Shown here: positions 32,567 to 47,680 of the stretch, piece by piece
Numbering within the stretch: position 1 is the first letter of the stretch
Layout of the letters: every line of letters begins with the position of its first letter
From: Nitrospirota bacterium
GTDB lineage: Bacteria > Nitrospirota > Thermodesulfovibrionia > Thermodesulfovibrionales > UBA1546
NCBI GenBank assembly: GCA_016212165.1
Contig: JACRGY010000106.1
Coordinates: 851 to 64,850, forward strand
DNA: 64,000 nucleotides
Reading direction: 5' to 3'
Notes under the pieces: model-generated
What the model was told of the DNA's origin: nothing
Databases searched by the model: none
Seen by the model: only the letters and a program-made list of their open reading frames with translations
Made by a program: the position numbers and the translations under genes

Positions 32567-32938
32567 ATGATATACGGAGTCGGCATAGACCTTGTTAAGA
32601 TAGACCGCATGAAAGATGTTGTTGAGAAATGGGGCAGAAAATTTCTCGAGAGGGTTTTTACAGAGAATGAAATTTCATACTGCTATGAAAAAAAGAACCC
32701 GTATCTGTCTCTTGCAGTGCGCTTTGCAGCCAAGGAAGCCCTGATAAAGGCGATAGGCTCTGAGATTGCTGTCTCTCTGACTGATATTGAAGTCATTAAC
32801 TCCCTTAGCGGAAAGCCTGCTATAAAGGCCAATGGCAAATTAGGCATTTTTTTGAAGAAGAGAAAGATAAAACAGGTTGCTCTCAGCTTGAGCCATGAAA
32901 AAGACTACGGGATTGCCTGTGTAGTGCTGGAAAATTAA
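32567..32938 (+). CDS. acpS: holo-[acyl-carrier-protein] synthase
   Basis: 123 aa. GVGIDLV and FAAKEA motifs. pdxJ-acpS synteny. Confidence 0.9.
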   Translation: MIYGVGIDLVKIDRMKDVVEKWGRKFLERVFTENEISYCYEKKNPYLSLAVRFAAKEALIKAIGSEIAVSLTDIEVINSLSGKPAIKANGKLGIFLKKRKIKQVALSLSHEKDYGIACVVLEN

Positions 32939-32969
32939 GGTCCGACTAATCTACCTGACTTTTATGTAA

Positions 32970-33482
32970 TTAAACTGCCGGTACAACTATTCCGAGCTTA
33001 ATGGCCGTGCATATGGCAGCCGACCTGTTTGATACGTCAAATTTCCTGTAAATATTATCAAGGTGTGCGTTAACAGTGCCTGCCCCTATCTTGAGGCTTA
33101 ATGCTATTTTTTTGTTGGAGAACCCTTTTACAAGGTACTTTAGAACCTTTTTTTCCATTATTGTTAATATTGAGATTTCTTTGCTTTGCTTATCTCTTAA
33201 GATTACGAGCACATCTGCTTCATGCGGGTTGTGAGGCAGTTGAACCATAAGTGTGTTAAGGCCGCAAAACGATGCTTCTATTAGGTGTCTTACTCCAATC
33301 TTCAACCAACCTAACATCTCATCCGTATTTATCCTTTTTTCTGTGAGTTTCTTATTTGCCTTTTCGCTGACCCAAACATCTCCATTGTGTGATATGAGTA
33401 TCAGAGGTTCTTTTTCGATAATGCTCTCGAGGTTTTTGATGCATTTTTTGATTCTGGCAGCTTTATGATTATTATTGGCCAT
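32970..33482 (-). CDS. LuxR/GerE-family transcriptional regulator with an unassigned N-terminal domain
   Basis: C-terminal LT.MEKKVLKYLVKGFSNKKIALSLKIGAGTVNAHLDNIYRKFDV HTH. The ATG at 33482 is preferred over the TTG at 33518. Confidence 0.8.
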   Translation of the reverse strand: MANNNHKAARIKKCIKNLESIIEKEPLILISHNGDVWVSEKANKKLTEKRINTDEMLGWLKIGVRHLIEASFCGLNTLMVQLPHNPHEADVLVILRDKQSKEISILTIMEKKVLKYLVKGFSNKKIALSLKIGAGTVNAHLDNIYRKFDVSNRSAAICTAIKLGIVVPAV

Positions 33483-33565
33483 TTTTCTAAATATAATACC
33501 TAAAATTACAATTATCAAGTAAATGCTATGGTTAAGCCTATTCTTTTCCGGTTACTTTTGTCTTC

Positions 33566-33606
33566 TCCCAAATGGGATACCCCGTTTATATATCCCAAAT
33601 AGGGAT
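33566..33606. promoter_or_regulatory. two palindromic operator candidates (TCCCAAATGGGA; ATCCCAAATAGGGAT)
   Basis: Sites at 33566-33577 and 33592-33606, in the divergent luxR / Cys-rich-gene intergenic region. The second abuts the -35 hexamer. Confidence 0.5.
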
Positions 33607-33634
33607 TGACATAGCCTAAAGATACAATTATCAT
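33606..33634 (+). promoter_or_regulatory. candidate sigma70 promoter (TTGACA-17-TATCAT)
   Basis: TTGACA at 33606-33611, 17-nt spacer, TATCAT at 33629-33634. Lies 34 nt upstream of the ATG at 33668. Confidence 0.5.
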
Positions 33635-33667
33635 ATCATCTAATTTTATAGGTACGGGCAAATCTTA

Positions 33668-33988
33668 ATGAAAAAAAATTGCTGGGAATTCAAGAACTGC
33701 GGGAGGCACGATGGCGGCGAACATGTTCATGACCGTGGAATATGTCCTGCCACAACAGAAAGAAGCCTTAATGGCATTCATGGAGGCACTAATGCGGGAA
33801 GGGCATGCTGGGTTGTAGCAGGAACATTCTGTAAGGGAGAAGTTCAGGGGACTTTTGCGCAGAAATATAAAAATTGCAAACAATGCGATTTTTATCAGGA
33901 GGTAAGGAAAGAGGAGGGCGCAAAATTCACATTGTCGTCTGTCCTTTTGTTTAATCTTTTAACGAAGCTTAAAACTTTTAAATTATGA
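33668..33988 (+). CDS. free-standing 7-Cys module protein ('two-CW'-like), copy A
   Basis: 106 aa. NCWEFKNCG...ICP...GRACWVVAGTFCKGEVQGTFAQKYKNCKQCDFY. ATGA overlap with the downstream receiver gene. Confidence 0.85.
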   Translation: MKKNCWEFKNCGRHDGGEHVHDRGICPATTERSLNGIHGGTNAGRACWVVAGTFCKGEVQGTFAQKYKNCKQCDFYQEVRKEEGAKFTLSSVLLFNLLTKLKTFKL

Positions 33989-34356
33989 AAAAAATACTTA
34001 TTGTTGATGATGACGATACCATAAGAGAAGTGCTTTCTTATGCAGTGACGCAATTCGGCCATAAGGCATATAAGGCCAGTAACGGCGCTGAGGCAATAGA
34101 TATTCTAAAGGCAAACCCGGAAATCGAGATAGTTGTCCTTGACTTAAAAATGCCTGTAATGACCGGCCAGGAAATATGTCCCCTGATTAAGAACATGCGG
34201 CCCGATGTAGAGATAATCATATCAAGCGGCTTTGTAGACGAACCTGTGCTAAGAGAACTCACTGACAATGGCATTAAATATATTCTTCGAAAGCCTTATC
34301 CCTTGCCGGTTCTCGAAGAAATAATAAATAACCATTCCAGCCGTCAAGGGATGTAG
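33985..34356 (+). CDS. single-domain response regulator (CheY-like receiver)
   Basis: 123 aa. DDDD acidic pocket, VVLDLKMP phospho-acceptor Asp, conserved SS/K. Confidence 0.88.
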   Translation: MKKILIVDDDDTIREVLSYAVTQFGHKAYKASNGAEAIDILKANPEIEIVVLDLKMPVMTGQEICPLIKNMRPDVEIIISSGFVDEPVLRELTDNGIKYILRKPYPLPVLEEIINNHSSRQGM

Positions 34357-34378
34357 CGGTGATATGGCTAAGCCCTTC

Positions 34379-35023
34379 TTATATTAAAAAGCTCCCTTCA
34401 CGCATAAGCAATATGTTTCCGCCCAGCCTTTCTGCCTGAGAGACATCATGCGTGGCCATTATGATAGCTGTGCCCTTTTGTTTGTTTATCTTCAGTATTA
34501 TTTCTTCGACAATCCCGGTATTCTTCTCGTCAATAGATGCGGTTGGTTCATCAAGAAAGATAATCTCAGGCTCTATCACCAAGGCCCTTGCAATGCCAAG
34601 TCTCTGTGCCTCGCCGCTCGACAGGGTGAGGGCATTGTGTCTTTTTTTGTCTGTGAGGCCGACAAATTCGAGTATCTTTTCTACCTTTTCTTCGATATCT
34701 TTTTTTCTCATTCCTCTTATTTTCAGGCCATAGGCCGCATTCTTAAAAACAGTTGCATTGAAAACGCCGACCTTTGGCAATACGAGAGTTATCTTCCGGC
34801 GTAGTTCCACGCCTTTTTTCAAGGCATTGTTATCTGAAAAGTAATTGATTCCTCCTGCATCAGGTTCTTCAAGAAGCGCACACAGCCTGAGAAATGTTGA
34901 CTTTCCACAGCCATTTGGTCCCATCAGGGTATAGATTTTGCGAGGCTCAAAGGAATATGAACAATTTTTTACCGCGGTGTTTCCGTTATAGGTTTTCCAG
35001 AGGTTTAATGCGCTTAATTTCAT
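34379..35023 (-). CDS. tupC: ABC transporter ATP-binding protein (TupC-like, no TOBE domain)
   Basis: 214 aa. GPNGCGKST Walker A, LSSGEAQR signature, IFLDEP Walker B. Confidence 0.75.
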   Translation of the reverse strand: MKLSALNLWKTYNGNTAVKNCSYSFEPRKIYTLMGPNGCGKSTFLRLCALLEEPDAGGINYFSDNNALKKGVELRRKITLVLPKVGVFNATVFKNAAYGLKIRGMRKKDIEEKVEKILEFVGLTDKKRHNALTLSSGEAQRLGIARALVIEPEIIFLDEPTASIDEKNTGIVEEIILKINKQKGTAIIMATHDVSQAERLGGNILLMREGSFLI

Positions 35024-45127: not shown

Positions 45128-45193
45128 AAGAAAAGAGGCTATGATTTTTAAATTTTTTAACCTTAGTCTTAATCTATGTTTAAGGAGGAAAGC

Positions 45194-47680
45194 GTGAAGA
45201 TAAAAATCAGCACAAAACTTTTTATTGGTTTAGGGGTTATACTTGCCATTGTAATTGCAATGGCAGCCGGATTTTATTTGTCCATGAAAAATGTGGAAGA
45301 GGCAAAGTCAGAGGCCCTTCAGCTGTCAGAGCTGAACACATTTTTCTCGGAGCGAGTGGTGGACCATCTTAAATGGATGGACGGACTTTCTTCGGGTCTC
45401 TTTATTGAGGGGAAGGAATTCAAGGGAAAGCTTGATCCCGCTGAATGTAACCTTGGAAAATGGATGACGACATTTAAACCCTATTCAAAGGAGATAGAAG
45501 AGCCTTTTAAAGCATTAGATGCGCCCCACAAAAAACTACATGAATCGGCAAGCCGAATAATTTCAGAAACCAAAGCGGGGCACAAGGACAGGGCTCATGC
45601 AATATTTATAGCGGAGACAATTCCTGCAGTTGCATCTGTCCAGGGAAGCCTGAATAAGATGAAGGAAATCCTGAAAAAGGACATGGAAACAAAAGACATA
45701 CAATTGAAGGCTGCCATTAAAAGAGCTAATGCCATTACGTTCGGGCTTGCTGCGTTTGTATTGCTGTTTGGCATTATCGGAGGCACAATTTTTGTAAAGG
45801 GCATAAGTAACGGGATTACAGGGCCTATCGAAAAGATGATAAATTCAATGAAGAGGATTGCTGACGGGAACCTTACTGAAGAAGTGGCTGTTAAGGGCAG
45901 TGATGAGATAGTTCAGATGTCCGGAGAGTTCAATAAGGTTGTTAAGGGGCTTAAGGATACAATTACACACGCTGTCGCATCTGCCCTTAAGGTTTCCCTG
46001 GCTACAAATAATATAGTTTCAAACGCGCAGAAACTTTCCTTATCCTCACAGGAAGAAGCCTCTGCCACAGAAGAGACTACTTCTTCCATGGAGGAGATGG
46101 CAGCATCTATAGCACAGGTTGCAAAGAATACGGAGTCGCTTGCGACAAATGTTGATGAAACATCAGCTACAATAGGCGAGATGGCTGCCTCGATAGAGCA
46201 GGTAGGAAAAAGCGCTGACAACATGGCAGCTTCGGTTGAAGAAACATCCGCAACAATTGAAGAGATGCTTGCCTCTACCGACCAGACTGCAAAAAATACA
46301 GGTATGATGACCGAGGCAGTAAGCGAAACATCCCTGACTGTTGAAAATCTGCTCTCATCAATCGAGCAGATATCTAAAAATACAGAATCCTTAAAAAATA
46401 TGGTCACGGAGACTTCAAGCACCATTGAAGAGATGACAATGACTGTCAGAGAGGTTGCGGGAAGGATTGAGGGCGCCAATAAATTAACCCAGAAAGCTTT
46501 CGGTGAGGCCGAAGACGGCGGAAAGGCCATATACCAGAGCATAGAAAGCCTCCAGAATATCGGCAAAACAACAGAAAAAACCATGGGCATAATACAAAAC
46601 CTGGGCAAACGCTCGGAAGAAATAGGCTCGATTGTTGAAGTCATAGATGAGATTGCAGACCAGACAAACCTTCTGGCGCTTAACGCCGCAATAGAGGCAG
46701 CGCGGGCAGGGGATGCCGGAAGGGGCTTTGCCGTAGTTGCAGAGGAAATACGAAAGCTTGCAGAGCGTTCCATGGAGGCTACAAAAGAGATTGGGGGCGT
46801 TATAAAACAGGTACAGAGCGAAACTGAAACAGCGATAAAGGCAACAGAAGAAACTTACAGGGAAGGCAAGGGCGGTATTATGCTTGCGGGGCAGAGCAGG
46901 GATGCATTCACAGAAATAATAGCTTCAATAAAAGAAAGTTCGGAAGTAATGCATGGGATAGCCAAGTCTGCAGCTGAACTGAACAAGGCGATTGAGCAGA
47001 GCATGAAATATGTTGTGGATATGAATGCGTCTACTGATGATGTTACAAGCGCTGTAAAAGGGCAGGCGAATGGCGCAGGCAGCATCAGGCTTCTCCTTGA
47101 TAAGATGAACAAAATGGTACAGGAAGTAAATATAGCAGCCAGAGAACAATCCATTGGCGGAAAACAGATACGAGAGGCTGTAGAGCGCATGAAAAATATA
47201 GTCCATGAGGTAGGGGTTGCCGTTAAAGAGCAGGTGAGCGGGACCAAGCAGATAGTTCAATCAGCTGAGATAATGCATGAAATGGCACAGTCGGTAGCTA
47301 ATGCAACATCAGAACAGAAACTCGGAGGAGAGACTGTTGTGAGAGCAATGGAGGGCATAGGGCATATTGCATCAGAAAACCTTGAGCTGTCGAAGAAAAT
47401 GACCGAGACGTCCAATGAAACACTTTTCCAGATGGAAAACCTCCAATATGTAATAAGCAACTTTAAGATACATTCAAATGGAAATAAAAAATGCTGGGAT
47501 GTAATGAACTGTCCAGCAGGGTCAAGGCTTAAATGCCCTGCATATAATGCCCAGGAAGACCGGTGCTGGCTTATATCGGGAACGTGGTGCAAGGGCGCGC
47601 AGCAGGGTGACGCGCGGTCTAAATTGCGTAACTGCATGACCTGTGAGGCATTCAAGGTTATACAGGGAGTGGAAGTGTAA
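45194..47680 (+). CDS. methyl-accepting chemotaxis protein: CZB-like sensor between 2 TM, HAMP, long MA domain, C-terminal 7-Cys module (copy C)
   Basis: GTG follows AAGGAGG. HLKW...CNLGKW...H..LH zinc-binding-type motif at aa 60-125. Signalling hairpin [18 protein letters not shown]. Four EETS(A/S)..EEM..S repeats. Last 60 aa: [35 protein letters not shown]...CMTCEAF. Confidence 0.9.

Follow-up and report, generated by a model that had tools for sequence, protein, structure and literature searches.

Regulators such as RhlR, LasR, SdiA, TraR, VqmA and EL222 carry an alpha/beta sensor domain followed by a LuxR helix-turn-helix (HTH) domain, and dimers of the ligand-sensing LuxR proteins bind inverted repeats located at the −35 region or overlapping it. 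A small sensor domain preceding a C-terminal LuxR HTH is also found in the PAS-LuxR regulators of Streptomyces (PimM, PteF, CfaR), which bind the 16-bp palindrome CTVGGGA-WW-TCCCBAG, located in the −35 region of promoters under their control (PMC9774167). The present analysis deals with a locus of this general kind in an uncultured Nitrospirota bacterium of the order Thermodesulfovibrionales. It lies in a window of 64,000 nucleotides, meaning the whole stretch of DNA that was analysed (positions 851 to 64,850 of contig JACRGY010000106.1, assembly GCA_016212165.1). The gene of a LuxR-type one-component regulator of 170 amino acids (aa), located at 32970–33482 on the minus strand, is divergent from two genes on the plus strand that encode a free-standing long-form two-CW protein of 106 aa (33668–33988) and a stand-alone receiver of 123 aa (33985–34356). 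The cassette is a genuine and conserved feature, but it does not represent a sensor/receiver pair of general occurrence. The conserved unit is the divergent LuxR gene and receiver gene, to which a two-CW gene is added at the head of the operon in some loci only.

The locus shares with the Streptomyces regulators a small sensor domain with a C-terminal LuxR HTH, the likeness being one of architecture. The presumed target also resembles theirs, being a palindrome of 16 bp at the −35 region in which blocks of three G or three C flank a W-W centre. However, the polarity of the half-sites is opposite (TCTCCCA-WW-TGGGAGA), the N-terminal domain has no Pfam PAS match and is PAS-like by the topology of its AlphaFold2 (AF2) model only, the host belongs to another phylum, and the genes presumably controlled form a signalling operon instead of a biosynthetic cluster. 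The resemblance to the ligand-sensing LuxR proteins consists in the order of the sensor domain and the HTH and in whole-model Foldseek matches with E values from 3e-6 to 6e-4. Unlike in these proteins, the N-terminal domain comprises only about 100 residues and matches no Pfam model, while sequence similarity is confined to the HTH. The template modelling (TM) scores are low, 0.31–0.39, because the domains are packed differently.

The two genes of the operon also have described relatives. Like Spo0F, the receiver is a stand-alone protein, about 120 residues long, whose acidic pocket is complete and which has the Ser/Thr and the Lys; in contrast to the Spo0F system, no Spo0B/Hpt partner or kinase is encoded nearby, the host is not a sporulating Firmicute, and the resemblance is generic to receivers. 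The 106-aa protein corresponds to the NCBIfam two-CW family NF045718, a curated domain model without assigned function, in its full-length match, its two CW motifs and its seven invariant cysteines. The cassette copy differs in being free-standing, located behind a dedicated LuxR-type operator and coupled to a receiver, and this arrangement is confined to a few Nitrospirota. A literature search found no paper combining a single-domain response regulator, LuxR and divergent transcription. The LuxR–receiver core, its operator and the evidence for the two-CW gene as an optional insert are new.

Conservation of the divergent LuxR–receiver unit

The comparison covered 19 loci of the regulator subfamily, obtained by searching 60 relatives with the regulator and adding four metagenomic homologues and three paralogous copies; ORFs (open reading frames) in the surveys were six-frame calls, and the related genomes are not independent samples. 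A LuxR gene divergent from a stand-alone receiver (REC) gene was found in 14 of the 19 loci (G000, which is the genome studied here, G001, two copies in G003, G005, G054, G023, G024, G057, G035, G046, L068, L069 and L070). The other five loci have no receiver (L021, L071, L072, L074, L075). In L072, a distant locus, the regulator is followed on the same strand by the operator repeat described below and then by a two-CW gene. The cassette keeps its genomic position, its neighbours being acpS and pdxJ, to which nrd is added in L068 and L069.

A two-CW gene stands between the promoter and the receiver in five loci only, namely this genome, G001, G005, L068 and G054. The ORFs for the two-CW protein and the receiver overlap by ATGA in this genome, as described in an earlier first-pass annotation of the sequence, and in G001, whereas gaps of 13–38 nt separate them in L068, G005 and G054. 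In the last of these loci (L018/L076, contig C49), an additional ORF of 80 aa, not assigned to any family, separates the operator from the two-CW gene (2092–2334 of L018), its end overlapping the two-CW start; the two-CW copy itself is a shortened, divergent form.

The receiver gene of this genome has no Shine-Dalgarno sequence of its own, and no intrinsic terminator was predicted at the locus. It is proposed that the receiver is translated by termination-reinitiation at the ATGA, by which both proteins would be made together.

Predicted operator and promoter of the receiver operon

With the regulator start placed at ATG 33482, the divergent spacer measures 185 bp. Direct reading of the sequence located two palindromes in it, TCCCAAATGGGA at 33566–33577 and ATCCCAAATAGGGAT at 33592–33606, together with the promoter TTGACA (33606–33611), a 17-nt spacer and TATCAT (33629–33634); in all these respects the first-pass annotation was accurate. 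The promoter (33606–33634, plus strand) is of the sigma-70 type and was the best-scoring one in a scan of 32900–34500, agreeing in 11 of 12 positions. The predicted distal operator is TCTCCCAAATGGGATA (33564–33579), of which the first palindrome is the core, and its centre lies at about −69.5 from the predicted start of the two-CW/receiver transcript. The predicted proximal operator is the second palindrome, which is centred at about −42 and shares the first base of the −35 hexamer. All site centres were computed with the −35 hexamer set at −35 to −30.

The orthologous spacers contain TCTCCCAAATGGGAGA followed directly by TTGAC(A/C/T), 17–18 nt and a −10 box of the form TA(T/G/A)(T/C/A)AT, the spacers being read by eye. 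The −35 box of the receiver promoter is directly preceded by an inverted repeat of 16 bp, TCTCCCA-WW-TGGGAGA, which is a perfect palindrome in G003 and L068. Its core CCCA-NN-TGGG was found exactly in 14 of the 19 subfamily loci and with one mismatch in two, while three have none. The core is invariably located on the side of the REC or two-CW gene and, if a −35-like hexamer can be recognised, 2–3 nt upstream of it. In more distant families the site is retained as CCCATTTGGG, CCCATCTGGG and two forms with one mismatch despite degeneration of the −35 hexamer.

The distal operator of this genome corresponds in the alignment to the only site present in G003, G005 and L068, which is centred at about −43.5. 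In this genome, G001 and L069 the site is doubled through a homologous segment of about 27–28 bp, to which the proximal operator belongs; L070 also has a doubled site, with different spacing.

A scan of all 2.79 Mb of the genome found the pattern TCCCAAAT(N0-1)GGGA at two places only, which lie in this spacer, 27 bp apart. The looser CCCA-NN-TGGG has 14 occurrences genome-wide, and the two other copies most like the operator were inspected and lie inside ORFs. By these counts, the operator appears to be private to this spacer. A two-CW regulon, or any regulon beyond the locus, was considered and rejected after the genome scan for TCCCA-N-TGGGA and CCCA-NN-TGGG, the two closest copies being intragenic. 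None of the other two-CW loci carries the operator site.

This phylogenetic footprint, an inverted repeat next to the −35 box in the subfamily loci, strongly backs the earlier proposal that the operon is under LuxR-type control. The LuxR-type protein is the presumed binder of the repeat, and the invariance of its recognition helix matches that of the site.

The sign of the regulation can be argued both ways. Activation is favoured here because of the position of the site, the precedent of the family and the degenerate −35 boxes of distant loci. Proteins of the LuxR/GerE family with sites near −42 to −44 are mostly activators. In the distant loci the repeat is kept beside hexamers such as TTGCCC, TGGCAT and CTGGCG, which fits dependence on an activator. 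The Streptomyces PAS-LuxR proteins, which bind a palindrome in the −35 region, are described mainly as pathway-specific regulators of biosynthetic genes (PMC9774167), and this likewise speaks against repression.

Alternatively, the LuxR-type protein could occlude a strong promoter until its PAS-like domain releases it on a signal, with the two operators allowing cooperative and tighter repression. The closeness of the promoter to the consensus and the retention of TTGAC(A/C/T) in G001, G003, G005, L068, L069 and L070 would agree with such an arrangement. The proximal site also covers the first base of the −35 box, so that the footprint of a LuxR dimer would reach into the hexamer, and the site was duplicated in four lineages. 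When these points are set against those for activation, repression is a tenable possibility that falls short of being the expected one.

The LuxR-type regulator

The assignment of the regulator to the LuxR/GerE HTH superfamily follows from a PF00196 match at aa 117–172 (59.9 bits against a cut-off of 23.5). Its start is most likely ATG 33482 (MANNNHK...), as all of the 26 aligned homologues begin equivalently. In the AF2 model, with a predicted local distance difference test (pLDDT) score of 77, an N-terminal helix is followed by a beta-beta-alpha-alpha-beta-beta-beta PAS-like domain at aa ~25–97. The N-terminal domain matched no Pfam model at E <= 1, including PAS and the autoinducer-binding domain. 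Matches to PDB entries by sequence or profile (LiaR, VraR, NarL, GerE) were limited to the HTH, whereas Foldseek aligned the full-length model with RhlR, SdiA, LasR, VqmA, EL222 and 3clo.

Two better-known identities were considered for this protein. A response regulator of the NarL/FixJ type was rejected, since there is no PF00072 match in the 170-aa protein and the N-terminal domain is predicted as a helix with a five-stranded PAS-like fold. It does not qualify as a quorum-sensing LuxR protein either, because its N-terminal domain has about 100 residues instead of about 160, matches no Pfam model and shows likeness at the fold level with low TM-scores only. Going by the model, the protein is a one-component regulator with a sensor domain of its own instead of a response regulator. 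The name 'response regulator transcription factor' that databases give to some of its homologues is misleading, because the regulator has no receiver domain.

The subfamily is small. The word-indexed search yielded 26 clusters, and every source name carried by them is that of Nitrospirota. In the subfamily alignment, residues T136, V137, N138, H140, L141, D142, N143, I144, Y145 and K147 of the recognition helix are invariant or nearly so.

The gene of the regulator has a predicted promoter of its own, TTGATA-17-TATATT (33490–33518, minus strand), which agrees in 10 of 12 positions and belongs to a segment conserved in the orthologous spacers. The promoter ends 7 nt before the ATG, and a Shine-Dalgarno sequence is absent. 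Because of this short distance, the mRNA of the regulator is probably leaderless or nearly so.

The receiver and its possible phosphodonors

The 123-aa protein is a receiver by its PF00072 match (73.9 bits against 30.2). The sequence and the alignment of orthologues contain the acidic pair D8/D9, the phospho-acceptor D52, S80 and K102. Its closest solved relatives are Spo0F proteins (E 9e-16 over residues 1–116). Identification with CheY was rejected because the score with the NF041367 CheY_Halo model, 47 bits, is far below the cut-off of 200, the gene neighbourhood comprises the LuxR-type gene and tupC, and the nearest PDB relatives are Spo0F proteins. The DVU0259 family of response regulators (NF045717) was rejected as well, with 41.7 bits against a cut-off of 160. 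As had been stated earlier, no kinase adjoins the cassette, and the receiver most likely acts as a phosphorelay shuttle or a phosphate sink for an unlinked kinase or Hpt protein.

A hybrid kinase of 1116 aa is encoded elsewhere in the genome (L078, G000:C140:26203–29553). It is composed of PAS, two-CW (aa ~358–415), HisKA, HATPase, REC, REC and Hpt domains and is a plausible phosphodonor for orphan receivers such as that of the cassette.

The first-pass annotation had proposed that the cassette is a partner switch feeding the large Che-type cluster 6 kb downstream, with CheA (42762) or the 50821 kinase as candidate phosphodonor of the receiver. The cassette does lie near this cluster in the genome studied, the cluster uses two-CW modules too, and CheA orthologues were found in all five cassette-bearing relatives tested. 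In these same five relatives, however, CheA is on a different contig from the cassette, whose own conserved address is the acpS and pdxJ genes, with nrd in two loci. Three stand-alone receivers are already encoded within the Che cluster itself, while the receiver of the cassette falls far under the CheY cut-off and is nearest to Spo0F. No STAS, anti-sigma kinase (GHKL) or PP2C domain, as a partner switch would call for, was found in the three cassette proteins. Beyond proximity in one assembly nothing supports the Che link, and a partner switch of this kind is held to be highly improbable.

In the same window, the chemoreceptor at 45176–47680, which bears a C-terminal two-CW domain, has a genuine match to the Pfam CZB (chemoreceptor zinc-binding) domain at aa 64–129 (39.9 bits), N-terminal to the HAMP domain (aa 211–260).

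A closer relation between the receiver and the regulator could also be imagined. The two could form a split response regulator, in which DNA binding is switched when the PAS-like domain is bound by the receiver in its phosphorylated form, giving an autoregulatory loop. The divergent arrangement of the LuxR and REC genes is kept across several families and in the paralogous G003 copy, and the regulators of G023 and G057 are paired with another type of stand-alone receiver, which suggests selection for having a receiver beside the regulator. But the receiver is not closest to receivers of the NarL/FixJ type, five subfamily loci have no receiver, and a regulator located beside its own target gene is the simpler reading. 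Such a loop is accordingly judged unlikely.

The two-CW protein

The 106-aa protein belongs to the two-CW family by its match to NF045718 (114.6 bits against a cut-off of 35, covering positions 1–80 of 80); Pfam has no model for it. The motifs C5-W6 and C47-W48 are present, and with C11, C26, C55, C70 and C73 they give the seven cysteines already counted in the first-pass annotation. In an alignment of 50 homologues, the invariant columns are C5, W6, E7, C11, G12, R13, C26, H38, C47, W48, C55, C70 and C73. An insert of 22 aa between the third and the fourth cysteine had been described earlier. The protein does have extra residues relative to short paralogues, but these number 18 and form two blocks, as the short paralogues are without 7 residues between Cys2 and Cys3 and 11 residues between Cys3 and Cys4. 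The long form is the canonical one. It is strongly constrained, with more than 520 clusters at 90% identity, the best 120 of which are 62–95% identical to the query.

The best AF2 model (pLDDT 82, predicted TM score 0.70) consists of short helices and loops with a C-terminal helix. Foldseek comparison of the model with the PDB gave no match at E <= 10, and a profile search of the PDB returned noise only. In the literature, no paper containing the term 'two-CW domain' was found. The protein probably holds a metal or iron-sulfur (Fe-S) cofactor, a site of this kind being suggested because seven cysteines and one histidine are invariant within about 70 residues.

In this genome 12 two-CW matches were found, nine of them free-standing and three inside a methyl-accepting chemotaxis protein (MCP) and two kinases. 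The domain is present in 107 of 151 sampled genomes of the order. Long-form proteins with 52–65% identity were also observed in an isolate of Oscillospiraceae (L091) and in metagenome-assembled genomes of Myxococcota, Desulfobulbales and Promethearchaeia (Asgard; L142, L151, L156), the Asgard gene being followed by an ORF of 519 aa that contains a REC domain. Such a distribution of similar sequences indicates extreme conservation or horizontal spread.

Other two-CW genes of the genome also stand among signalling genes. At L003 (G000:C22:35842–39081) a PAS histidine kinase (371 aa), a free-standing two-CW protein and a REC-HD_5 response regulator (344 aa) are encoded in succession. The operon L007/L009 (G000:C65:22729–26232) contains a histidine kinase, a REC-LuxR regulator of the NarL type, a short two-CW protein (73 aa) and a long one (99 aa), and the long copy groups with that of the cassette in a tree. 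The tree comprised 54 two-CW copies and has too few columns. In it, the cassette copies of family f1 group with 93/72 support with two paralogues of this genome, while that of G054 is placed apart from them. By this tree, one common origin for the two-CW gene of the cassette is no more than a suggestion.

The generality of the pairing was surveyed with receiver and two-CW hidden Markov models built from this genome, where 79 REC-containing ORFs lead to an expectation of a REC neighbour for about 6% of genes. Two sets of free-standing two-CW loci were surveyed, the 40 top-scoring ones from as many other genomes of the order and the best 80 across the GTDB species. The REC neighbours found were mostly large NtrC-like or HD-type proteins, some of them convergent. 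A stand-alone receiver downstream of the two-CW gene was found in none of the 40 loci within the order. In the set of 80 it was found only in the cassette copy of a congener, and about five other loci adjoin a larger REC protein. A general pair of a two-CW gene followed by a receiver gene was consequently rejected. One orthologous group of two-CW genes from three families (L052, L059, L064) invariably faces, in convergent orientation, the gene for a REC protein of the NtrC-like kind with about 450 aa and makes up three of the five loci with a REC neighbour in the 40-locus survey.

Because of these neighbours and of the kinase, MCP and response-regulator contexts in this genome, the two-CW family is best regarded, from sequence context, as tied to signalling generally and not specifically to single-domain receivers.

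It could be supposed, then, that a two-CW gene came to lie behind an already regulated promoter and shares no more than its regulation with the receiver. There would be no interaction between the proteins, whose targets would differ, the two-CW protein, for instance, docking on kinases or chemoreceptors in trans. The optional presence of the gene in the cassette fits such a history, as do the solitary position of most free-standing two-CW genes, with a stand-alone receiver only in the congener's cassette among the 120 surveyed loci, and the occurrence of the domain elsewhere in kinases and an MCP but not in receivers. The tight operon linkage of the two genes in five loci, with the ATGA overlap in two of them, argues in the opposite direction, and so does the second two-CW gene of this genome that precedes a REC-containing gene (the PAS kinase, two-CW and REC-HD succession). 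On balance, mere co-regulation is rather unlikely.

At the other extreme, the two-CW protein might serve as a metal or Fe-S redox sensor that binds the receiver, or its kinase or Hpt donor, and gates phosphotransfer, by which a three-part input circuit would be formed. This is doubtful, and a direct partnership of the two-CW protein with the receiver is unsupported.

Proposed mode of action

It seems moderately probable that the locus is a lineage-specific regulatory cassette of Thermodesulfovibrionales-type Nitrospirota, in which the LuxR-type protein gates the co-expression of the receiver and the two-CW protein. A dimer of the regulator, combining the PAS-like sensor with the LuxR/GerE HTH, would bind the 16-bp repeat abutting the −35 box and thereby gate transcription of the divergent operon, more likely by activation. 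The ancestral and conserved target would be the stand-alone Spo0F-like receiver with its complete phospho-acceptor pocket, which would be phosphorylated in trans. In this sub-lineage, the free-standing two-CW protein, with its probable metal or Fe-S cofactor, would be the product of the first gene of the operon and would probably add a metal or redox input to the signalling route of the receiver.

Several observations weigh against such a cassette. The binder of the repeat is deduced from co-occurrence only, and the promoter, with its 11 of 12 consensus positions, is more typical of a repressed than of an activated promoter. Just one of the five AF2 models of the two-CW protein was confident, the other four being poor. 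REC-containing neighbours were found in 5 of the 40 and about 6 of the 80 surveyed two-CW loci, against the rough background of ~6%. The two-CW gene is absent from at least nine loci that keep the receiver (both copies in G003, L069, L070, G023, G024, G035, G046, G057). In G003, which belongs to the same genus, it was deleted and a stump of nine codons, MKKSRYSKN*, was left.

On account of these absences and this deletion, the earlier description of the locus as a self-contained sensor/receiver cassette is not supported for the two-CW protein and the receiver. The G003 spacer aligns through the start of the two-CW ORF, and the TGA of the stump lies one base before the ATG of the receiver (L016, G003:C164 1085–1145). 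The G003 receiver is also without a Shine-Dalgarno sequence. Because the stump was kept there and the receiver has no such sequence, translation of the receiver would seem to depend on an upstream ORF.

Significance for the Nitrospirota and the two-CW family

The analysis defines a small, undescribed sensor-LuxR subfamily in the Nitrospirota together with its predicted DNA site. The individual parts otherwise belong to ordinary classes of bacterial signalling proteins, but the cassette is a compact system, with a dedicated regulator, a unique predicted 16-bp operator and an output of two genes, and lends itself to questions about the binding partners of the two-CW protein and its possible action on a receiver. 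Nature also offers variants of it, in which the two-CW gene is present, absent, freshly deleted or located alone behind the same operator. The two-CW family is abundant and strongly conserved while being without known function, fold or literature, which makes a handle on it worth having. If the three-part circuit were true, it would provide the first functional handle on this family, which extends over many phyla including the Asgard archaea.

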